20,000 nucleotides of DNA from Chiloscyllium plagiosum (Eukaryota): assembly GCF_004010195.1 (NCBI RefSeq), contig NC_057718.1:81964682-81984681 (forward strand), given 5' to 3'. The notes under the pieces are model-generated. The model worked only from the letters and a program-made list of their open reading frames with translations. It searched no databases and was not told the origin of the DNA. The position numbers were made by a program, and so were the translations under genes. Positions 1 through 19,365 of this stretch are shown one piece after another. Numbering within the stretch: the first letter of the stretch is position 1; each line of letters opens with the position of its first letter.

Positions 1-1620
1 CATAAAGTTCTTCTGCATTTTTTTCTGCTTATCCTTCCTACAACAAGGTGGCCAAAACTGAACATAATACTCCAAGTGCGGCCTCACCAATGTCCTGTAT
101 AACTGCAACATAACTTCCTAACTTCTATACTCAATGCCCTGACTGATGAAGGCCAGTGTACCAAAAGCCTTTTTCACTATGCTGTCCACCTGAGCCTCCA
201 CTTTCAGAGAACTCTGAACCTGAGCTCTAAGATCCTTCTGTTCCACTCTACTCCTTAAGGCCCTACCATTCATCAGGAAACTCTGACCTTGATCTGACTT
301 TCCAAAATGCAATACCTCACATTTATCTATATTAAACTTAATTTGCCATTTCTCGGTCCACTTCCCCAGCTGATCAAAGTCCTGCTGCAATTTCTGATAA
401 CCTTCCTCACTGTCCATGATAGTGCCTATTTTAATGTCATCAACAAAACTTGCTAATCATGCCTTGTACATTCTCATCCAAATCATTGATATAGATAAAA
501 ACAGTAATGGGTCCAGCACCGACCCCTGAGGCACTCCACTACCCACAGGCCTCCAGTCCGACAAGCATCCTTCCACTATTACCCTCCGTTTACTCCCATC
601 AAGCCAATTTTATATCCAATTTGCCACCTCACCCGGGATTCCATGTGATCTAACCTTCCAGAGCAGCCTACCATGTTGGACCTTACCAAAGGCCTTACTG
701 AAATCCATATAGACTATGTCTACCACCTTTCCTTCATCAACCTTCCTGATCACTTCATCAAAGAACTCTAACAAATTTGTATGGCATGATCACCCATGCA
801 CAAAGCCATGCTGACGACTCCCAATCAAACTCTATCTTTCCAAATACATGTAAATCTTGTCCCTCAGAATCTTCTCAAGTAATTTAACTACAACAGATGT
901 TAGGCTTACTGGTCTAGAATTCCCATGCTTTTCTTTGCAGCCCTTCTTGAATATTGGCACAACATTTGCTACCCTCCAGTCTTTTGGGACCTCACACGTG
1001 GCTAACAATGATGCAACAATGATTCCTGAAGGGCTTATGCCCGAAACGTCGATTCTCCTGTTCCTTGGATGCTGCCTGACCTGCTGCGCTTTTCCAGCAA
1101 CACATTTTCAGCTCTGATGCAACAATGTCAACCAGGGTCCCTGCAATTTCTTCTCTCACCTCTTGCAGTGTTCTTGGATATATCTCGTCAGAACCAAGAG
1201 AATTATCTAACTTCATACATTGTAATACATCCAACATCTTCTCTACTGTGATATGGACTGTCCTCAAGATATTACCACTAACTGCCCCAAGTTCCCAAGT
1301 CCCCAGGTCTTCATGTTTTTCTCCATGGTAAACACAGAGGATAAACATTCACTGCGAACCTCACCCATCTCCTGTGGTTCTACGCATTGATCCTGGAGGT
1401 GCCCTATTAACACTCTGGTTGTTCTTTTTCCTTTATAATACCTAAAGTACCACTTTGGATTCACCCTAATATTATCAGCCAAGTGTATTGTGTGACCCCT
1501 TTTTGCCCTCCTGATTTCCTTCTTCAGTAAACCCCTGCATTCCCTGTATACATCCAGTGATTCCCTTGATCCCAGCTGCCTGTACATGAGCCACACCTCC
1601 TTTTTCCTGGTCAAAGCCTC
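1..1620 (-). mobile_element. CR1-clade LINE ORF2 (reverse transcriptase) fragment, degenerate, interrupted by a PLE mini-insertion at 1022-1114
   Basis: Minus-strand ORFs give CR1 ORF2 motifs: LQQDFDQLGKWTEKWQIKFNIDKCEVLHFGK (118-417), GSDEIYPRTLQEVREEIA (992-1348) and LKKEIRRAKR...NPKWYFRY (1264-1614). Frameshifts, stops and internal deletions are present. It runs off the window start. Confidence 0.92.
1022..1114 (+). mobile_element. Penelope-like element terminal (pLTR) fragment, family A, with a hammerhead motif carrying a 3-nt core deletion
   Basis: Sequence attcCTGAAGGGCTTATGCCCGAAACGTC...ttttcagctc is near-identical to the arms at 1957-2161 and 4729-4938. A perfect 13-bp TSD tgatgcaacaatg lies at 1009-1021 and 1115-1127. 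Confidence 0.85.
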
Positions 1621-1956
1621 AATAAAAGCTAGAGTTTGTCAAATACTGTTCATGTCCTAACTTGAAGCAAGTCCTACTCATCCACTACCCCTGAACTGTA
1701 CTTGTTTCCAGTTAAGATATTCTTTAATTTTAAAATACTCATCCTTGTTTACCATGCATGGTCTTGCCTCTCTCTTTCTAGAAATCTCTGCCAGTCTTAC
1801 AATTTTATAAAATAGTTTTAGTCTCCTTCTGGTCTCTTGAGCACTCCGAATTTTTATCATACCATTATTAGTGGCCGTGCCTTTAGCTGCCATGTGCCTA
1901 AGGTCTGGATTTCCCTACTCCTTTAAAATGTGCTTAAATGGTATCTTGTGATGAAA

Positions 1957-2161
1957 GCTGAAAATGTGTTGCTGGAAAAGCGCAGCAGGCCAGGCAGCAT
2001 CCAGGGAACAGGAGAATCGACGTTTCGGGCATAAGCCCTTCTTCAGGCTTATGCCCGAAACGTCGATTCTCCTGTTCCCTGAATGCTGCCTGACCTGCTG
2101 CGCTTTTCCAGCAACACATTTTCAGCTCTGATCTCCAGCATCTGCAGCCCTCACTGTATCC
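1957..2161. mobile_element. Foldback Penelope-like insertion, family A (82-bp inverted arms plus 34-nt tail)
   Basis: Arms 1956-2037 and 2046-2127 are reverse complements with 2 mismatches. The loop is 8 nt and the tail is 2128-2161. A perfect 14-bp TSD atcttgtgatgaaa lies at 1943-1956 and 2162-2175. Confidence 0.9.
2019..2046 (-). ncRNA. Minimal hammerhead ribozyme motif (PLE type), intact core
   Basis: Minus strand reads CTGAAGA-A-GGGC-TTAT-GCCC-GAAA-C-GTC. This gives the CUGANGA and GAAA boxes, a 4-bp stem II, a loopless palindromic stem III (ACGU) and a GUC cleavage triplet. The 5' strand of stem I is largely lost at the inversion junction. Confidence 0.72.
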
Positions 2162-2588
2162 ATCTTGTGATGAAACGTTGGGCATCATCATTCATTTTTC
2201 TTTATGCGAGGCAGTCAAATTTTGCTACATATCACCCATGTGAACAACCTTGGGATGTTTTAGGCATTTTATGAAAACAAGCTGCTGTTGTATGATCATG
2301 GAGATGATTCATAGAAACCAAAAATATATTCACTTAAAAAAAAAGAGGGATACAAGAGAAAAGTACTTTACAACACTAACTGCTATTATTTTATGTGGTC
2401 TGAAGAGATAATCAAGATCTCATGGAATGATGGATATATTAATTAATAGTTAATTGGGTGTGAGTTGGTTCTGTAGATTTGGGGAGCTAGTAGTCAGTGG
2501 GGTATGAATTTTATAGAATGCAGTGAACTGAAATAAAATTCTCATTAAAAGATTGGACTTGGACTCTGCTTCACAACAGTTATTTTCT

Positions 2589-2607
2589 TGTGTAGGAGAG
2601 AATGGTT
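2589..2607 (+). promoter_or_regulatory. Degenerate primer-binding site complementary to initiator tRNA-Met
   Basis: tgtgtaggagagaatggtt versus the expected TGGTAGCAGAGGATGGTT (1 insertion, 2 substitutions). It sits just upstream of the gag-like sequence and downstream of an AATAAA (2532-2537) in a putative LTR. Confidence 0.6.
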
Positions 2608-4728
2608 GAGTCAAAATGTAATGTTTTGGTATATAATTACCTATTCCTCTTTTCTGAACATCAGCCTTGTAATCAGTGAAAGACTTAAGTAACCATGTGG
2701 ACTTGAGTTACTTCTTTCGTAAAGAGGAAAGAAGGTACGGCCTTAGCACTTTTGTTACCCTACAAAAGCAGGATAAAAATCAAAGTTATTTTGAAATTAG
2801 AGCCTGATGATTCGAACCCAGATGAAAATTTAGACAAATTGTCAACTTTCATGGATAAAATTTATCAATAAGATCATTTATTGATTTATGGAGGCCCAGA
2901 CAGATTTTGCTAAATTTTTTAAAAACTGAGGATGGTACTATGGGGGAGTACATAATGCAATTAAGTAGATTGTATGCAAAACCGTGGAATTTTCAAATGA
3001 TATTTCAGTAATCTGATCTGGCATTTAAGTTATTGGACTTTGCCAAAGTATCAAATATGGACAGATTTCTTGGTCAGATAGTTTTGATGAGAGGTAAATT
3101 TGTGGATAAACTTAAGCTGCTTGATCAAATGTCAGGAGCATTACAGATTCCAAGAAAAGGATTCCTTTCCTTCAGCATTCATAGTGCAAAGACAGCAACT
3201 GGCAATACTACTGAAAATGGAATAGATGGGCAACAGTACGAAAGGAAAACCGTAACAAAGAGAAATAAGGACAGAAATGCTATTGGTTGTTTTGGGCAAA
3301 CAGAATTTGGGATTTACAATGAGTGAGCAAACCCCAGAAATCAAATTTTAGATGCAATTCAAAATACCATTACACCATGAACTGTCCCACAGTGTACAAC
3401 AGAGTAATTTAAACTAAATATGAAATGGACGATTTGGAGGAAGAAGTTGAATACACAGATCAAAGAAAGGACATTGTAATGGTCACAGAAAGTTTCAGCT
3501 CAGTGATGGATGTGATGGTGGCAGATTCTTCTACTTGTGTAGTGTTAAACAGTGGGTAGAATAGACTGGATAAACTGCTGCCTAGATTCTTGGTGTAATA
3601 AGAATCAGGACAAAGTTAAAGAATTTGAGGGTTTCACTAGTTTCAAATTTGGAAACGATGACACACTAAAACCTTTGAAAAGGGTGATCATTCTTTGTAA
3701 AATAGCCAAAATCAATAATTTTATGAGTACAAATGCAGTATGCAGTGAAATACTGCTGATATAAAGTAGGCCAGTGATGAAGAAAGCATATCCAGTTTTA
3801 TCAAGCTTTTGTATTTGGAAAAACTGAATTTGTGATTTACATAATCAGGAGACAATTGTACTCCTTTACTAGGACATAAGCCTCTCCACTGAAGAAATTA
3901 AATAAGTGACATTAATATCAATGGTAGAAACTTAGAAGACAAAAAATCAATTGTGTTAAAATTATACTGGTAATTTGCGTATCAAGCCTCCAAAAACATT
4001 AAAACTTTCAGGAGAGAATGCAGTAATAAGGGTTGATAGTAAGACTAACCTTAGCAAGTGATTTCATTGAGGTAATGGTTGAAGGATAAAGGTATAGAAA
4101 AAAATTTATTTTACATTTTGTAGTTTTGGCAACCACATTTTGTCAGACAACAAGAAGTCATCGTAAAGTAACTGTGGTTAAGGTATTGGAAAAGTGAATA
4201 GGAACCAGACATAGACCACTAGCAAAATTTCTCACACATAATAGAAGGGAAGTTGCTAACAATGAATTCTGAGATTCGTGTGAATATGAACATAATAAGC
4301 ACGAATACTGTAGCAGCAATCACTTTTAACAATGGGGGAATTGAAAAGAACCATGCATTACAAAACAAACAACTCTCAAAATTTTGACAAATCGGTTAAA
4401 CCATAAATTATCATCTACACTAGTACAGGCTGTCCATGCTGAGGATTTGTTGCAGATAGTTGGAGGATATAATCTATATCAGTTTGCTTTTAGGTAAGAA
4501 TTCTGAAGTTCCATCACTAATAGGTAAGGGACTACAAGTAGCTCTACTTTTTCCAAGAATGGAGCAGAAAGACATTCATTGAAGCTGAAATTTCAGAAAG
4601 AATTTAGCAAAGCTTAAGGTACAAATTAAGGCTATGAGCAACCAGTTCAATCAGGAGGGTGTGGACTATTGCATGGGTGAGGGACTTAAACAATGGACAG
4701 ACCTGGAGAAGGTTATTGATAAAGACAA

Positions 4729-4938
4729 CTAGCAGAAAGTGAGGACTGCAGATGCTGGAGATCAGAGCTGAAAAATGTGTTGCTGGAAAAGTGCAGCAGG
4801 TCAGGCAGCATCAAAGGAGCAGGAGAATCGACGTTTCGGGCATAGGTCCTGAAGAAGGGCTTATGCCCGAAACGTCGATTCTCCTGCTCCTTTGCTGCTG
4901 CCTGACCTGCTGCGCTTTTCCAGCAACACATTTTCAGC
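4729..4938. mobile_element. Foldback Penelope-like insertion, family A, in opposite polarity to 1957-2161
   Basis: Tail 4729-4765, arms about 4766-4849 and 4857-4939. A perfect 15-bp TSD tattgataaagacaa lies at 4714-4728 and 4939-4953. It interrupts the integrase C-terminal region. Confidence 0.9.
4849..4876 (+). ncRNA. Minimal hammerhead ribozyme motif (PLE type), intact core
   Basis: CTGAAGA-A-GGGC-TTAT-GCCC-GAAA-C-GTC, with a possible short stem I ggtc/gatt using G-U pairs. Confidence 0.72.
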
Positions 4939-5264
4939 TATTGATAAAGACAAGAAAATAATAATTGGACAGCATGGGAGCCTGACTGTTCAGGTATTCT
5001 CTTCAAGACTGCTTGATATAGATTGCAGGTTTGCAAATATTGAAGGAGTTATAGAAAATAACTGGGAACCAAGTATCTCTCCAACCATCTGCAACAAATC
5101 CTCAGCATGGACAGCCTGTATTAGTGTAGAGCTGTCAGAATCAGCTGCAAAGCTCTCAGTGTAGAGCTGCAGAGCTGTCAGAATCAAATTGTGCAATGAC
5201 AATTTGTCTGATGAAGGACAGATCAGTACCGATGGGGCCATTTGAGGCCACTGGTCAAAAAAGA

Positions 5265-5747
5265 GAAAGTGAGAACTGCAGATGCTGGAGAAGTCAAGAG
5301 TCCAAAAGGATAGCGCTGGAAAAGCACAGCAGGTCAGGCAGCATCCAAGAAGCAGGACAGTTGACATTTCAGATGTCAGATGTCTTCTTCCTTGGGATCC
5401 TTCAACCACACGGAGTTAACATCAATCTCACTAGTTTCCAAATCTCCCCTTCCCTCACCTCATCTCATATCCAACTCCGTAACTCAGCTTTTTGACCTGT
5501 CCATCTTCCTTCCCATCTATCCACTCCATCCTCTCCACTGATCTATCACAATTATCCCCCCTATCTGCTGCCACCTATCACCTTCCTACCTACCTTCCCC
5601 TCAGCCCCAGTCCCACCTCCCTATTTATCTCTTATCCCCCTTCCCCCTCCGCATTCCTGATGAAGGGCTTTTGCCCAAAACATCGAATCCTCTGCTCCTC
5701 GGATGCTCCTGACCTGCTGTGCTTTTCCAGCACCATCCTTTTCTACT
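5265..5747 (+). mobile_element. Older, longer Penelope-like element 3' fragment with inverted 5' pLTR, ORF C-terminus, pyrimidine-rich UTR and decayed hammerhead
   Basis: Inverted arm 5265-5370. FFLGILQPHGVNI resembles the PLE GIY-YIG C-terminal LxTLxPxGLN motif. Hammerhead remnant attc-CTGATGA-A-GGGC-TTTT-GCCC-aAAAC-aTC-gaat at 5653-5688. A perfect 14-bp TSD ctggtcaaaaaaga lies at 5251-5264 and 5748-5761. Confidence 0.85.
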
Positions 5748-6103
5748 CTGGTCAAAAAAGACAACTGCCAGATGTGGATACTAAAGTCAAATATTTAGCA
5801 GATGGGTTTAGCCAATGGAGAATGTGACTATTATATGCAGAGCAGGAAAGGGCAGTGGAAAATATAAAAGCTAGATAAATATACTGGATGAGGTGCAGGT
5901 GGTTAGATCCATGAAGATGTTAGGAATATGAAGTACACAAAGGAAAGGCAATAAAACATTTTCTTAGTCCAATAGTGCACCAGAGAGTGAACATGCCTCT
6001 GGAAAGAGATTATATTTTCTTGAAAAACTCCTATTAATATGAGGGGGGGGGGTCAATCAAACAGTAGCAGTCTAGAAAGAGATAGAAGGCAAAATAGTTT
6101 AAA

Positions 6104-6177
6104 TAAAGTCAGAAGTCACATGACACCAAGTTATAGCCGAACAAGTTTATTTGAAATCACAAGCTTTCCTTCGTCAA
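6104..6177 (-). mobile_element. Short remnant of family-B PLE terminus, hammerhead stem II deleted
   Basis: aaagtcagaagtcacatgacaccaagttatagccgaacaagtttatttgaaatcacaagctttc aligns by eye with 13045-13107. Confidence 0.65.
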
Positions 6178-6345
6178 AGCATCTGAAACAATATAGGCAG
6201 AGGGGCCAAGACCTTAGTTCACTTTGAGAGACAGAATGGGTGATTTGGCCCCTTTTGCTGTAAAATTATTTGATTCAACGTACCCATTTTTAACTTATAC
6301 ATAATGAAAACAACAAATACTACACATTTTCTGACTGTAAATTAC

Positions 6346-6696: not shown

Positions 6697-8460
6697 AAAC
6701 ACAGAAAATAGGAGCAAGTCATTTGGTCCCTCAAGTCTATTCTGCCATTCTTAAGATCATGACCTTCTAAACCTTTTATTTATTCGTTCACAGGATATGG
6801 GCATTGCTGGCTAGGCCAGTATTCGTTGCCCATCCCTAACTGCCAGGATTGTAGTTGAGAGTCAACCACAAATTTAATAGCCTGTTCCTGCTTTAACCCC
6901 ATATCCTTTGATCCTTTTAGCCCCAAGTGCTACATCCAACTCCTTCTTGAAATCATATCATGTTTTGGGCTCAGCTGATTTCTGTGGTAGCTAATTCCAA
7001 AAGCTCACCACTTTGCAGGTGAAGAAATTTCTCATCAGTCCTAAATGTATTATATCAGCCCTGTATCATTACAATGTGACCCTAGAATTAGAACTTAGAA
7101 AGTTCTGGACTTTCCCACTACTGGGAGCATCCTTTCTGCATTTACCCTTTCTAGTCCTGTTAGAATTTTATAGACTTCCATGAAGATCCCCCTCATTCTT
7201 CTGAACTTCTTTGAATACAGTCTTAACTTATTCAACCTCTACCCATATGTCAGTCCCACCATTCTAGGAATCAGTCTGATAAACCTTTGTTGTACTCCCT
7301 CTCTTGCAAGAACATCCTTCCTCAAATAAGGAGGCCAAAACTGCACACATTATTCCAGGTGTGGTCTCACTAAGGGCCTGTATATTTGCAGCAAGATATC
7401 CCTGAGAATCACAGAATCCCTACAATTCAGATAGGAGACCATTTATCCCACTTAGTCTGCACTCTCTGAAGAGCATACCACACCCCTACCCTATCTCCAT
7501 AATCCGGCATTTACCCACCTAACCTAAACAACTCTACTAATAGCTGCACCACGGACAAATTTACCATGGCCAGTTCATCTAACCTGCTGTGGGAGGAAAC
7601 CGGAATACTCAGAGGAAACTCACACTGACATGGGGAAAAGATGCAAATTCCACACAGATAATCACTCAAGGCTGGAACTGAACCTGAGTCCCTGCCACTG
7701 TGAAACAATTGTTTAATCACGGAGCCACCATGCCACCCCACTCCTTACTTGAATTATGAAGACCAATATATTATTTGCCTTCTTTACCACGTGCTGCACC
7801 TTCAGCAACTGGTATATGTGGCCACCCAGGTCTTATTGCACATTCATTGCAATCAGTTTATAGCCATTTAAGTATTAATCTACCTTCCCATTTTGGCTAC
7901 CAAAGTGGATAGCCTTACATTCAACCCCATTATATTCCATCTGCCCATTCACAGAGCTTGTCAAATTACACAGAAACATCTCTGCACTCTCCTCAAAGTT
8001 CAATCTCCCACCCAGCTTTGTGTCATCTGCAAATTTGGAGTTGTTACATTTAGTTCTCTCATCCAAATCATTAATATATATTGTGAACAGCTGTAGTCCT
8101 AGCACTGTTCCATGTGGTACTCCAGTAGTCAATGACTGCCATTCCGAAAAAGATACATTTATTCCTACTCTTTATTTCCTTCCTGCCAACCAGTTCTCTA
8201 TTCATCTCAGTATTAGCCTCTAATCTATAGGATCTGTTCCAGATTCTACAGAATCTTGGAAGATGCCCACCAATGCCTTCACTATTTCTAGAGCCAATTC
8301 CTTAGGTACTCTGAGTTATAGTTTATCGGTGAATTTTTTCGGCCATCAATCCCATCAATTTCCCCAGTACTATTTCCCCACGAAAACTGATTTCCTTCAG
8401 TTTCTTCCGCTCACTAAACCCTGCATTGCCCAACCTATTATTTGTATCCTCCTTTGTAAA
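6697..8460 (-). mobile_element. CR1-clade LINE 3' portion, degenerate, with nested insertions
   Basis: GVPHGTVLGLQLFTIYINDLD...[11 protein letters not shown] (7875-8132) and a CR1-type 3' UTR near 6700-6960. It is split by a SINE at 7405-7740 and a different short repeat at about 6770-6870. Confidence 0.88.
7405..7740 (-). mobile_element. HE1-type V-SINE (tRNA-derived) inserted in CR1
   Basis: Minus strand ggggtggcatggtggctccgtg...ggttcagttcc (A/B-box-like), plus a V-domain core ccggtttcctcccacag. It is homologous to 15181-15497. Confidence 0.85.
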
Positions 8461-10465: not shown

Positions 10466-12090
10466 TTACATAGAGTCATAGAGATGAAGTAGACCCTTCA
10501 GTCCCTCTCAACCATATCGACCAGAATCAAGTCCCATTTGCTAGCATTTAGCCTATATTCCTCTAAACCCTTCCTATTCATATACCCATCCAGGTGCCTT
10601 TTAAATTTTGTGATTGTATCACCCTCCACCACTTCCTCTGGCAGCTCATTCCATACACGCACCACCCTCTGCGTGAAAATGTTGCCCCTTAAGTTCCTTT
10701 TAAATCTTTCCCCTTGCACCCTAAATCTATGCCCTCGAGTTCTGGATTCCCCCACCCCAGGGAAAAGACCTTGTCTATTTACCCTATCCATGCCCCTCAG
10801 GATTTTATAAACCTCGATAAGGTCACCCCTTAGCCTTCGATGCTGCAGAGCAAACAGCCCCAGCCTCTTCAGCAACTCCCTACACTTCAAACTGGCAACA
10901 TCTTTGTAAATCTTTTCTGAATCCTTTCAAGTTTTACAACATACTTCCTATAGGAGGCAGACCACAATTGCACACAATATCCCAAAAATGGTCTAATCAA
11001 TGTCCTATACAGCCACAACACGACCTCCTAGATCCAATACTTAATGCCTGATCAATAAAGAAAAGCATACCAAACACCTTCTTCCCCATCCTATCTACCT
11101 GCGACTCCACTTTCAAGGAGCTATGAACCTGCATTCCAAGGTCCCTTTGTTCAGCAATACTCCCCAAGACCTTACCATTAACTGTATAAGTCCTGCTCTG
11201 ATTTGCCTTTCCAAAATGCAGCACTTCACATTTATCTAAATTAAACTCCATTTGCCACTCCTCGGCTCATTGGCAAATTTGATCAAGATCCCGTCGTACT
11301 CTGAGATAATCTTCTTTGCTGCCTACAACACCTCCAATTTTGGTGTCATCTGCAAACTTACTAACTATATCTCCTACGTTCATGGCCAAATCATTTATAT
11401 AAATGACAAAAAGCAGTGGACCCAGCACCGATCCTTGTGGCACACCATAGGTCACAGGCCTCCAGTCTGAAAGGTAACCCTCCACCACCACTCTCTGTCT
11501 AATATCTTTGAGCCAATTCTGTATCGAAATAGCATGTTCTCCCTGCATTCCATGTGATCTAACCTTGCTAACCAGTCTTCCATGAGGAACCTTGTTGAAT
11601 GCCTTATTGAAGTCCATATAGATCACATCTACTGCTCTACCCTCATTGATCCTCTTTGTTACTTCCTCAAAAAACTCAATCAAGTTAGTGAGACATGATT
11701 CCCCACGCACAAAGCCATGTTGACTATCCCTAATCAGTCCTTGCCTTTCCAAATACATGTAAATCCTGTCCCTCAGGATTCCCTCCAACAACTTACCTAT
11801 CACTGATGTTAGGCTCACCGGTCTATAATTCCCTGGCACCTTCCTTAAATAGTGGCCCCATGTTAGCCAATCTTCAGTCTTCCGGCACCTCACCTATGAC
11901 TATCGAGAGTAGAAATATCTCAGCAAGGTGCCCAGCAATCATTTCCCTAGCTTCCCACATAGTTCTGGGGTACATCTGATCAAGTCCTGGGTATTTATCC
12001 AACTTTATGCGTCAAGACACCCAGCACTTCCTCCTCTTTCATACAGACATTTTTCAAGATGTCACCATCTATTTCCTCACATTCTATCTG
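10466..12090 (-). mobile_element. CR1/HER1-type LINE, 5'-truncated, RT domain to 3' tail, frameshifted
   Basis: [11 protein letters not shown]...QHGFVRG.SCLTNL...[13 protein letters not shown]...[20 protein letters not shown]...KFADDTK, then RRLRGDLIEVYKI...RTRGH...FTQRVVRVWNELP. The 3' tail is catagagtcatagag on the plus strand. Confidence 0.95.
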
Positions 12091-12189
12091 TAATTGTGAC
12101 ATTAAGTAGAGACAAATTCCAAAAACCACATTCCTACTTATTCATTTGCTTCTGACAGGTAACGGTAAGGTTACGTTTAAGCAACTATG

Positions 12190-12495
12190 TTGGCTCATGC
12201 TTAGCACTGCTACCTCACAGCGCCAGCGACCCGGCTTCGAATCCAGCCTCGGGCGACTATCTGTGTGGCGTTTGTACATTGTCCCCGTGTCTGTGTAGGT
12301 TTGCTCTGGTTTCCTCCAACAAAGATGTGCAGGTTAGGTGAATTGGCCACTCTAAATTGCCCATAATGTTTAGGGATGTGCAGGTTAGGTGCATTAGCCA
12401 GTGGTAAATGTGGAGTAATAGGGGAGTGGGTTACTCTTCCGAGGGTCAGTGTGGAATTGTTGGGCCGAAGGGCCTGTTTTCACACTGTATTCTAA
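12190..12495 (+). mobile_element. HE1-type V-SINE
   Basis: tRNA-like head (ttagcactgct...cacagcgccag...ttcgaatcc), V-domain and the 3' gggccgaagggcctgttt tail shared with CR1/HER1. Confidence 0.88.
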
Positions 12496-13096
12496 AAACT
12501 ACAATCAATAAAAAGCGAACAGTTTTGAGCATATATCAAAATTTAGTACCTAACTACAGTTCTTCCAAGTTATATTTTTGTATCAAGTATTAGGCATATT
12601 GAACAGCCATATCCAAACCTTCAGAAGTTTACCATTTTGCTGGGCAACAGACAAGCTTTAAACAAGTATCTCACAACTTGCTGAAGATAGGGTGATCAGA
12701 AAGTTAAAGTAAACGAGTATTAAAAGAACAGATCTGCCAACTCTGGTTGCCTGTGTTCCTGTAGATTTTGGTATATGACCTCCTGCCTCCAACATATTGC
12801 ACCACTGGGTTCTGGGAACATGTGCTCTGACCATGGATTAACTCTGCATTTTATAATGTATTTCAGCACCAAAGAGTAACATTTGTTATTGCAAGACTCA
12901 TTTCCCAGTGGTTCCTCATCAAAATCAGTTTCACATTTATACTGTCTCGTAATATTCACACACATTGAGGACATAAAATGTCCCGAACTGCTCGATTCAG
13001 TCCGATCTTAATGTGGAGGTGCCGATATTGGACTGGGTTGGACAAGGTCAAAAATCACACAATATCAGGTTACAGTCCAATGGGTTTATTTGAAAA

Positions 13097-13131
13097 CACT
13101 AGCTTTCAGAGCGCTGCTCCGTCATCAGGTG
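13097..13131 (-). ncRNA. Minimal hammerhead ribozyme motif, family B
   Basis: Minus strand reads cac-CTGATGA-C-GGAGC-agc-GCTCT-GAAA-G-CTA-gtg. Stem I is cac/gtg, stem II has 5 bp, stem III is the palindrome AGCU and the triplet is CUA. The partner copy on the plus strand at 13459-13490 lacks 3 nt of the core. Confidence 0.68.
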
Positions 13132-13149
13132 TTAGTGAGACAAGAAGAC

Positions 13150-13235
13150 AAAGTTTGTGAGAAGATTTGTAGCTTGGGTGCTCGTTGTTGTGGTTCTGTG
13201 GCAACACAAATTCCCAGCTCGGCGAACAAACCACA
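13150..13235. mobile_element. Tiny nested insertion, probably the terminus of a third PLE family with an internal inversion
   Basis: It interrupts the left arm of 13008-13535. The TSD is agacaagaagac (13138-13149) / agacaggaagac (13236-13247). It has a short inverted match ttgtggtt/aaccacaa and an unpaired left extension. Confidence 0.6.
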
Positions 13236-13544
13236 AGACAGGAAGACCTGAGACAGAGAATTTATAAGGAAAAGATCAAAGGGTCATGCAACTCATACGA
13301 ACAAATTGAACACACTTAAGATGGCTCTTAAATCTTCAATCTAACTGTTTAAAGATTTAGGTGTCATCTTATGTGTGTCCAATTAGTTTGCATGAGTTGT
13401 ATGACCCTTTCACCTTTTCCTTGTAAATTCTGTGTCTAAGGTCTTCCTCTCTCACTCTCACCTGAAGGAGCAACTCTCCGAAAGCTAGTGTTTTTAACTC
13501 AACCCGTTGAACCTGGTGTCATGTGATTTTTGACCCAGTTCGAT

Positions 13545-14396: not shown

Positions 14397-14700
14397 TAGA
14401 TTAGATTCTCTATAGTATGGAAACAGGGCCTTTGGCACAACAAGTCCATAGTGACCCTCCAAATAGTAACTCACCCAGACCCATTCCCCCACCCTATATT
14501 TACTAATACACCTAACACTATGGGCAATTTAGCATAGTCGATTCACCTGACCTGCACATCTTTGGATTGTGGGAGGAAACTGGAGCACCTGGAGGAAACC
14601 CACACAGACACGGGGAAAATGTGCAAACTCCACATAGACAGAACCCGAGTCCCTGGCGCTGTGAGACTGCAGTGCTATCCACTGAGTCACCATGCCACCC
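14397..14700 (-). mobile_element. HE1-type V-SINE with an internal deletion
   Basis: Homologous to 15181-15497, with a ttagattagatt tail. Confidence 0.88.
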
Positions 14701-15180: not shown

Positions 15181-15497
15181 AGATTAGATTACATTACAGT
15201 GTGGAAACAGGCCCTTCGGCCCAACAAGTCCACATCGACCCGCCGAAGCGCAACCCACCCATACCCCTACATTTACATTTAACCCTTACCTAACACTACA
15301 GGCAATTTAGTATGGCCAATTCACCTAACCTGCACATCTTTGGACTGTGGGAGGAAACCGGAGCACCCGGAGGAAACCCACGCAGACACGGGGAGAACGT
15401 GCAAATTTCACACAGTCAGTCGCCTGAGGCGAGAATTGAACCCGGGTCTCTGGCGCTGTGAGGCAGCAGTGCTAACCACTGTGCCACCGTGCCGCCC
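15181..15497 (-). mobile_element. Full-length, young HE1-type V-SINE
   Basis: A box TGGCACAGTGG and B box GGTTCAATTC, V-domain, retained CpGs and a (taatc)n tail. Confidence 0.93.
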
Positions 15498-16289
15498 ACA
15501 AATTCCTTCATTAAACTTGGAACCCGTCAGACATTGCATTTCACAACATAATGGGAAAAGTTTCCCTGATTGGCCTTCCATGGTTAGGTTTAAAACACCA
15601 GGCCATCTTTGCTACTTTTAAGGAACACAAGGTGAATAAGCTGATATGATATCCCGACTGCTTCATGTCCTGACCCATTTGCAGCATGGCAATGTGCTTA
15701 TCCAAAGTTGAATAAATATTTTTGTATATTATGGAATGCCATACACAAAGTCTCTAATATCAGGATAACCTAAAGTCAGTGCTTCCTAAGCTTTCTCTCT
15801 CTGAGATCCCACTTCAAATTTTGAAAATAAATGATGACCCCTCAACGAGAACCATTACAGCAGAATTACTATAAAACTTGGCCAGCACTCCACAGCGGCC
15901 ACTGTTGCCTCAGAACTTTCAGGAGCACATTTGGAACCCTAAGCCTCACTTTGAGAAGCACTGATTTAAGCTCAGTAGGCATTTTATCAATCATATAGAA
16001 TATGAAGTTGGACATTACATGCCAGGCATGTTTTTAGCAGGAGGACATGTAAAATAGGTCAGGTACTCAATCCACAATCTTTCTACACATCCCAAGCTGC
16101 CTGTAATAATATGTTAAGCAGGTCAAGATCACTCACTCAATGTAAATAAAAATTAAAGGTCAATTAGCCTATTGACCAGGATTATACACTTCCAATTCCA
16201 TAATACAAATGGTTTAAATGAAAAAGTGGAGGAAGGAAATGGGCAAGACATTCAGGGGGTGCCCAACATACATCAGGGGAAAATTCCAA

Positions 16290-18744: not shown

Positions 18745-19365
18745 GTTTGGATAGTGAAGGCGGCGTTTGATATGCTTTCCTTTCTTGGTCAGACCATTGA
18801 CTATAGGTGTTGGGAGGTCATGTTGCAGCTGTATAGGACATTGGTTAGGCCACTTTTGGAAGGATGTTGTGAAACTTGAAAGGGTTCAGAAAAGATTCAT
18901 AAGGATGTTGCCAGGGTTGGAGGATTTGAGCTATAGGGAGATGTTGAATAGGCTGGGGCTGTTTTCCCTGGAGCGTTGAAGGCTGACCAGTGACCTTATA
19001 AAGGTTAACATAATCATGAGGGGCATGGATAGGATAAATAGACAAAGTCTTTTCCCTGGGGTGGGGAAGTCCAGAACCAGCGGGCATAGGTTTAGGTGTG
19101 AGGGAAAAGATATAAAAGGGACCTAAGGTGCAACTTTTTCACGCAGAGGATGGTGTGTGTATGGAATGAACTGCCAGAGGAAGTGATGTAGGCTGGTACA
19201 ATTGCAACATTTAAAAGGCACCTGGATGGGTAAATGAATAGGAAGAGTTTAGAGCGATATGGACCAAGTGCTGGCAAATGGGACTAGATTAAGTTGGTAT
19301 ATCTGGTCAGCATGGACCAGTTGGACCGAAGGGTCTGTTTCCGTGCTGTACATCTCTATCACTCC
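18745..19365 (+). mobile_element. CR1/HER1-type LINE 3' end
   Basis: [13 protein letters not shown] and LERVQKRFIRMLPGLEDLSYRE.LNRLGLFSLE, with 3' UTR ggaccgaagggtctgtttccgtgctgtacatctctat. It is the same family as 10466-12090 but in inverted orientation. Confidence 0.92.

Follow-up and report, generated by a model that had tools for sequence, protein, structure and literature searches.

We describe two hairpin-shaped inserts of about 200 bases, likely to be cut-short ends of Penelope-like elements, in which the joint between the two inverted arms lies on the core of a hammerhead ribozyme. The inserts are found in a 20,000-nucleotide stretch of the Chiloscyllium plagiosum genome, which is hereinafter called the window. 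The scenario that we put forward, and to which we assign about an even chance, is that such inserts are made anew at each insertion, through twin priming at the target, stops of reverse transcription close to the ribozyme's front edge and joining of the two cDNA ends via microhomology. Window positions are 1-based; family positions are counted from C3 of the CUGA motif (+1), the preceding base being 0. The two inserts, denoted A and B, are organized as follows (TSD, target site duplication).

1943..1956, plus strand: left TSD of copy A, 14 bp, an exact repeat with its partner at 2162-2175
1957-2161: insert of copy A, from the sequence, repeat search and scripts
1957..2047, minus strand: core-bearing, tail-less arm of A, family position +90 back to 0, with C3 of CUGA at 2046
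2046..2047: junction of A, a 2-bp microhomology, CC/GG, common to both arms (sequence, alignment and patch list)
2046..2161, plus strand: tail-bearing arm of A, from +10 in the 5' strand of stem II to about +125
2162..2175, plus strand: right TSD of A, exact repeat
4714..4728, plus strand: left TSD of copy B, 15 bp, exact, with its partner at 4939-4953
4729-4938: insert of copy B, from the sequence, repeat search and scripts
4729..4850, minus strand: tail-bearing arm of B, starting at +8 to +11
4848..4850: junction of B, a CCT/AGG microhomology of 3 bp on either side of the core loop (alignment and patch list)
4848..4938, plus strand: core-bearing, tail-less arm of B, family position 0 to +90
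4939..4953, plus strand: right TSD of B, exact; the arm-flank joint is also present in a contig of a related organism (X5 record 1)

Examination of the sequence, together with the repeat search and scripts, confirmed the original prediction that the hairpin loops of A and B fall on the hammerhead core. The two copies share one layout in opposite orientations, namely, a tail-less arm that carries the core and spans 0 to +90, and a tailed arm that begins on the 5' side of stem II and ends at about +125 to +128. The loop of A (2038-2045) reads UGAAGAAG on the minus strand; in B, positions 4850-4856 read UGAAGAA on the plus strand, the Watson-Crick loop being 4851-4855, and the motif CUGAAGA (4849-4855) is followed by stem II (4857-4868) and by a predicted cut site after 4876, which was placed by analogy with the minimal hammerhead as described in PMC4209133. 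The microhomology that had been proposed at the strand joint is indeed there, CC/GG in A and CCT/AGG in B; according to the patch list, a CCT/AGG patch brackets GAAGA, and the joints of both copies lie on this patch. The microhomology of A would amount to 3 bp if one G had been lost from the G run of stem II. Only one base in this G run and two transitions set the junction of A apart from that of B, a difference so small that the junction letters of these two copies alone cannot tell variable joints from identical ones. At all three sites that separate A from B (+39, +43 and +45), the two arms of each copy agree, with T, C and G in both arms of A and C, T and T in both arms of B. The family base at +45 is G in 63,079 of the 81,798 X19 reads, the T of B being a minority state.

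Three further hammerhead-bearing inserts in the window bear on the origin of A and B, namely, the single arm C, the inverted insert D and the fold-back F.

1009-1021 and 1115-1127: TSD of copy C, 13 bp, exact
1022..1114, plus strand: copy C, a single tail-less arm (repeat search and alignment)
5251-5264 and 5748-5761: TSD of copy D, 14 bp, exact
5265-5747: insert of copy D
5265..5372, minus strand: tailed inverted arm of D, starting at about +19, with short filler next to it; from a more diverged subfamily
5382..5747, plus strand: long tail-less arm of D, with the putative last codons of a Penelope-type ORF, a pyrimidine-rich 3' region and the hammerhead core at 5657
13010..13535: fold-back F, from a second hammerhead-bearing family, with a tail on the left arm only and a junction at about 13340-13348

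As originally noted, copy C starts 4 nt before CUGA (1026) and the TSDs of A, B and C (14, 15 and 13 bp) are mutually different, so the three insertions are independent events. The core of C has, in addition, a 3-nt deletion. The further claim that independent insertions break at nearly the same place stands for A, B and C, and for a non-uniform distribution of breaks near the ribozyme, but it overlooked copy D and fold-back F. One break of D is at about +19 and the other is about 270 nt upstream of the core, whereas in F the junction is about 113-120 nt upstream of the core in both arms, with approximate boundaries because the 12-bp TSD of F has 2 mismatches. Thus, among the four inverted inserts of the two families in the window, both breaks fall at the core in two, one break in one and none in one; the events in the window alone are too few for a test against chance, all the more as the two breaks of an insert are not independent of each other. 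The 3' ends of the first family are of two classes, +90 to +92 and about +125 to +128: the tail-less end is at +90 to +92 in all four copies (A-D), and a tail of about 35-38 nt is present on one arm of A, B and D but not on C. A single minus-strand arm of the second family (copy E, 6105-6178), around which no clean TSD was found, starts at the core, cleanly without stem II, as if the hairpin had been skipped.

The assignment to Penelope-like elements draws on a combination of features. A minimal hammerhead motif lies in the terminal repeat at 2046 (minus strand) and 4849 (plus strand); a head-to-head inverted, 5'-truncated copy is present in A, B, D and F; and the hammerhead end, the inverted copy, the tail on one side only and the surrounding TSD are all features of endonuclease-positive (EN+) Penelope-like insertion units. 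In addition, the putative ORF end in the long arm of D, although only 15-16 residues long, is identical at 9 of 15 positions to the end of an ORF with a Pfam GIY-YIG match in another locus (L122) and was the top match when a profile built from 28 such ORF ends was compared with 892 six-frame segments of the window (E 0.001). Taken together, these features fit an EN+ Penelope-like insertion unit of the kind described in PMC8557442, PMC3846280, PMC2377424 and PMC8969392. A reverse transcriptase or zinc-finger-like linker was not found in the window, Pfam alone gave no match, and the Rfam search of the window detected no hammerhead, its 11 matches being sub-threshold microRNA-like hairpins and one snoRNA. 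An exact 22-base motif from the window had no matches in metagenome, genome and viral contigs; when the 37-residue ORF end was compared with 1.84 billion representatives, the three matches, all to repeat proteins, were discarded as spurious.

The insertion units described by Arkhipova (2013; PMC3846280) and Craig (2021; PMC8557442) similarly combine a head-to-head 5'-truncated copy, a TSD around the whole unit, a 30-40-bp tail on one end only and a short palindrome or overlap at the inverted junction. In contrast to those units, A and B are only about 205-210 bp long, contain no ORF and have the hammerhead core at the junction; the accounts of the units in the two papers draw no link between the position of the junction and the ribozyme. 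The motifs in A and B also resemble the minimal type I hammerheads of metazoan Penelope-like elements (Cervera and de la Pena 2014; PMC4209133) in the CUGANGA core, the single unpaired base before stem II, the GAAA, the palindromic remnant of helix III and the predominance of solo truncated copies. That description includes motif pairs with a spacing of 100-700 bp and one member on each strand; the difference in A and B is that the second motif is cut within stem II and the first one is without the stem I 5' strand. The non-LTR retrozymes (Li 2026; 10.64898/2026.07.22.740005) share with the window units the short, non-coding, hammerhead-bearing and pLTR-related character. However, as described there, retrozymes are head-to-tail tandems with at least two whole ribozymes, whereas the window units are head-to-head and TSD-bounded and none of them has a whole ribozyme. 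We therefore rejected a retrozyme identity, the window units being inverted or single.

How common are starts inside the core in the family at large? Mapping of reads of the same species on 4847-5775 at 80% likeness placed 174,940 reads in X19, with a depth on the arm of B of about 73,000, 88,000 and 69,000 per bin and of 0-5 in the flank; as a rough figure from the reads, the genome contains on the order of 100,000 family arms. The 57,414 X19 reads that run over the ends of the reference correspond to 0.65 of the plateau depth, a fraction that was obtained for X20 as well, compared with 0.72-0.83 that is expected, owing to the edge effect, if all arms ran through; hence starts inside the core, such as those of the tailed arms of A and B, are a minority, and by the read depths approximately 78-90% of the family arms reach the base before the core. 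Upstream of the core, the picture is mixed. Among the raw reads, 7,522 that are clipped before 5653 keep a clear family consensus for 30 nt upstream, with an agreement of 0.64, so many copies continue beyond the ribozyme's front edge. The loose-end consensus from contigs of two related organisms (24 listed rows of 2,670), in contrast, resembles the family over only about 6-12 nt before the core, with an agreement of 0.34-0.35. In D, the depth falls from about 23,000 at 5653-5683 to less than 900 just upstream, a drop that is partly due to subfamily divergence and is unusable as proof because the subfamilies differ there.

The joint of A and B is not among the 15 joints listed of 2,459, nor among the 12 linker rows listed of 800, and some other fold-back joints recur in X5 contigs at approximately 10-40 times the single-copy depth. 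One linker row (X5, high depth, a single row) leads from 5357 to 5653 with two letters in between, which fits an arm that starts one base past the predicted cut site and is joined to the stem I 5' strand, the other inverted patch beside CCT/AGG in the patch list. In X5, record 1 reads across the outer joints of both B and D, with at least 31 letters on each side, so these insertions exist in a related organism. Joint positions 5357, 4896 and 4854 were rejected as exact breakpoints, B or D differing from the family there, and so were 4847 and 5652-5653, which are edges of homology.

Penelope families of other animals allow a comparison across a larger set. Searches with a loosened core motif yielded 120 metagenome, 3 genome and 0 viral-contig loci, all from other families; these 123 loci of animal host DNA were reduced to 112 by merging 8 duplicate groups (L107 and L108 may be one locus). 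Head-to-head copies were found in 27 of the 112, with a 12-15-bp TSD in 7 of the 27. Stops could be located at the 76 loci with a long relative at 85% or higher, the remaining 36 being without a usable long relative. Going upstream, the number of stops per 10 nt at these 76 loci is 0.138, 0.074, 0.043, 0.036, 0.013, 0.026 and 0.019; in terms of exposure, there are 25 stops in 1,998 nt from +1 to -29 compared with 21 in 6,241 nt further up, a 3.7-fold excess (p 1e-5), which is spread unevenly over the five larger groups (11/27, 5/13, 7/15, 2/13 and 0/6). Both arms start between -29 and -1 in 8 of the 13 fold-backs that are well resolved among 28 candidates, and the junctions of all 13 differ. 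None of the 13 inverted arms starts at +1 to +40, although a p-value for this empty zone that assumes independence was rejected, the two breaks of an insert being correlated; looser starts downstream were seen in L029, L054, L055 and L012, with partners at +43 to +90. In these families, unlike in A and B, the junctions lie on the upstream side of the core, which is usually retained in both arms.

The 3' ends in these families are bimodal, with medians of 85.5 and 138. Stops before the core are equally frequent in tailed and tail-less arms (16/46 and 10/30, respectively). For 73 of the loci (3 were dropped), a model based on position beats one based on length by 3.05 log-likelihood units, a lead that simulations of the length model attained in 3 of 300 runs and that shrinks to 1.46 units when fold-backs are left out. 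The tailed arms, which have travelled about 50 nt further, show 15 stops in 1,030 nt compared with 10 in 875 nt for the tail-less ones, and tail-less arms of equal length show only 2 in 526 nt, fewer than the tailed arms (p 0.04). Position is thus modestly supported over length in a sample picked by the core; because the core motif served to select the loci, a start inside the core would go unseen on the arm so selected. In one contaminated bin, attempts to find copies by means other than the core yielded little (5, 1, 0 and 0 matches), and a pattern search yielded 9 matches versus 6 in the control. We also considered, and rejected, the possibility that short copies are preceded by a spliced leader exon: 19 short copies have no common upstream sequence, the only sharing among them being one duplicate locus and two pieces derived from the family. 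In L125 (G001:C234, approximately 12164-12306), a fold-back locus that was not picked by the core, the right arm starts at the first base past the predicted cut site; in this one case, the start is the one that run-off on a cleaved RNA would produce.

Under the scenario of fresh synthesis by twin priming, two target-primed cDNAs would be made on RNA of one source, both would end in a zone of stops at the ribozyme's 5' edge, and the two ends would be joined through the nearest short inverted repeat, with a match of 2-3 bp. The stop might be caused by the template RNA's 5' end, which is our first guess, or else by a protein-bound fold. The TSDs, the two classes of 3' ends, the variants common to the arms of a copy, the microhomology and the passage through stem II were all directly seen, as was the fact that the arms are not nested: in A, B and D, each arm holds material that is missing from its partner, as two separate primings predict. 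Conceivably, the common variants of the arms could also stem from later gene conversion, and the breaks of D and F, being far from the core, run counter to a stop at the front edge. Twin priming is in line with the in vitro study of Frangieh (2024; PMC11167929), in which a Penelope protein nicks and extends both target strands, two internal start sites bound the tail and ribozyme cleavage is dispensable for insertion. The Poseidon element of Anolis carolinensis in that study is like the elements described here in having tail-bounding start sites with a minimal hammerhead upstream of them; the difference is that the Poseidon work, as described, maps starts and addresses neither stops nor head-to-head joining. 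Tentatively, and at somewhat less than an even chance, we extend this scenario across animals in the form of a position-locked stop of the Penelope reverse transcriptase at the 5' edge of the hammerhead, due to the template 5' end or a protein-bound fold and not to cleavage, with the CCT/AGG and stem I repeats steering the joining of the twin cDNAs.

Several other explanations were weighed against twin priming. Self-priming by snap-back on the CCT/AGG patch, with one arm's tail trimmed later by the endonuclease, follows the reading of palindromic junctions proposed by Arkhipova (2013; PMC3846280) and would account, with a single template, for the common variants of the arms and for the 5-nt loop closed by a 3-bp patch. 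We nevertheless regard it as unlikely: in A, B and D, it is the core-less arm that carries the tail lacking in the other arm, and with the tail in that place, simple self-copying of a target-primed cDNA needs the extra trimming step, while in D, where filler bases are present, the loop would have to span about 290 nt. Alternatively, there might be no effect of position at all, insertions being mostly very short and a few junctions falling by chance on a ribozyme whose distance from the nearer start site is 60-90 nt. This view would agree with the fall of the read depth just before 5653 in D, the smooth fall of the stop rate elsewhere and the breaks of D and F at other places, but most reads pass from +45 to -1 without stopping, and stops before the core are as frequent in tailed as in tail-less arms and more frequent than in tail-less arms matched in length, so that we consider this, too, rather improbable.

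Chances are poorer still for the two mechanisms of the original prediction. If folded stem II stalled reverse transcription and thereby brought the breaks onto the core, starts of tailed arms at +8 to +11 in A and B and at about +19 in D and the lack of stem II in copy E could be understood, given also that stem II is predicted in single arms with a probability greater than 0.97. A hairpin stall, however, is expected at the 3' base of the hairpin, that is, at +20 for stem II, and not on its 5' side. Moreover, stem II has only 4 base pairs, the core-bearing arms of A, B, C and D were copied through it, as were those in some 78-90% of the reads, and none of the 13 inverted arms in the other families starts at +1 to +40; we find such a block quite doubtful. 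As for a 200-bp palindromic, non-autonomous master that is mobilized as a unit, the common outer end of A and B at +90, the difference of just one base between their junctions in the G run and the recurrence of other joints at 10-40 times the single-copy depth could be taken in its favor. Yet A and B differ at three sites in both arms at once, so that the two arms of each copy share variants absent from the other copy, and a single master would require concerted change. Their tail ends differ as well, the A/B joint is absent from the listed 15 joints and 12 linker rows, and in other animals junctions differ even within subfamilies, all of which makes a master very improbable.

With regard to the ribozyme itself, the original prediction held that the antisense arm would sequester it in a transcript as a built-in off state. 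The sequestration part agrees with the folding predictions, in which A and B form near-complete hairpins (-176.2 and -172.0 kcal/mol), with a pairing probability of 0.0 for stem II and a cost of about 26.6 kcal/mol to free the core. The off state does not fit, because A and B have lost the stem I 5' strand, so that the ribozyme in them is broken rather than switched off. None of A-D is predicted to be a working ribozyme, half of stem I being lost in A and B, the core being shortened in C and G12 being changed to A in D; the stem I 5' strand, intact core and free stem II of a functional minimal type I hammerhead do not occur together in any of the four copies. In A and B, the product is predicted to be a dead copy whose ribozyme is truncated and fully paired. 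Even whole minimal motifs are described in PMC4209133 as cleaving weakly, in a dimer-dependent manner and not as monomers.

The type of element and its layout are already known, so the stop at the front edge is mostly a refinement, albeit a testable one, of a known insertion pattern. What is new here is the limit, at the level of reads, on starts inside the core and a first cross-family test of position versus length. Our search of the openly accessible literature text found no paper on the clustering of breakpoints at the hammerhead; how Penelope-like elements finish insertion and what the hammerhead does are described as open questions in PMC8557442 and PMC11167929. Should the ribozyme's front edge set the place of both the 5' ends and the inversion joints in distant animals, the step that follows priming would become testable in the in vitro system already available. 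The same stop, if real, would explain the abundance of solo ribozyme motifs in such genomes and would mean that the hammerhead shapes the commonest product of insertion, so that a motif that need not cleave in vitro would have a function.

Some additional observations were made in the window. A 3-nt core deletion of the kind seen in copy C is also present in the right arm of F. A tiny insert nested in F (13150-13235), with a 12-bp TSD (1 mismatch) and a short internal inverted overlap, may, we presume, represent an inverted end, very short, that belongs to a third family. Diverged dispersed repeats with 70-86% identity, which we take to be LINE-like, occupy 31-1000 (copy C lies inside one of these repeats), 10525-12000 and 18750-19290, and dispersed repeats on both strands at 7550-7740, 12200-12500, 14410-14700 and 15190-15500 are presumably SINE-like. 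Copy B is flanked on both sides by an inverted repeat of 52-57 bp (4414-4465 and 5079-5130, 95-96%), for which no TSD was found; a contig of a related organism skips 5082-5165. Finally, a long pyrimidine tract directly before the core of D (5560-5652), together with the AG that comes next inside the core, looks similar to a 3' splice site; a 3' splice site near helix I of Drosophila Penelope is reported in PMC4209133.
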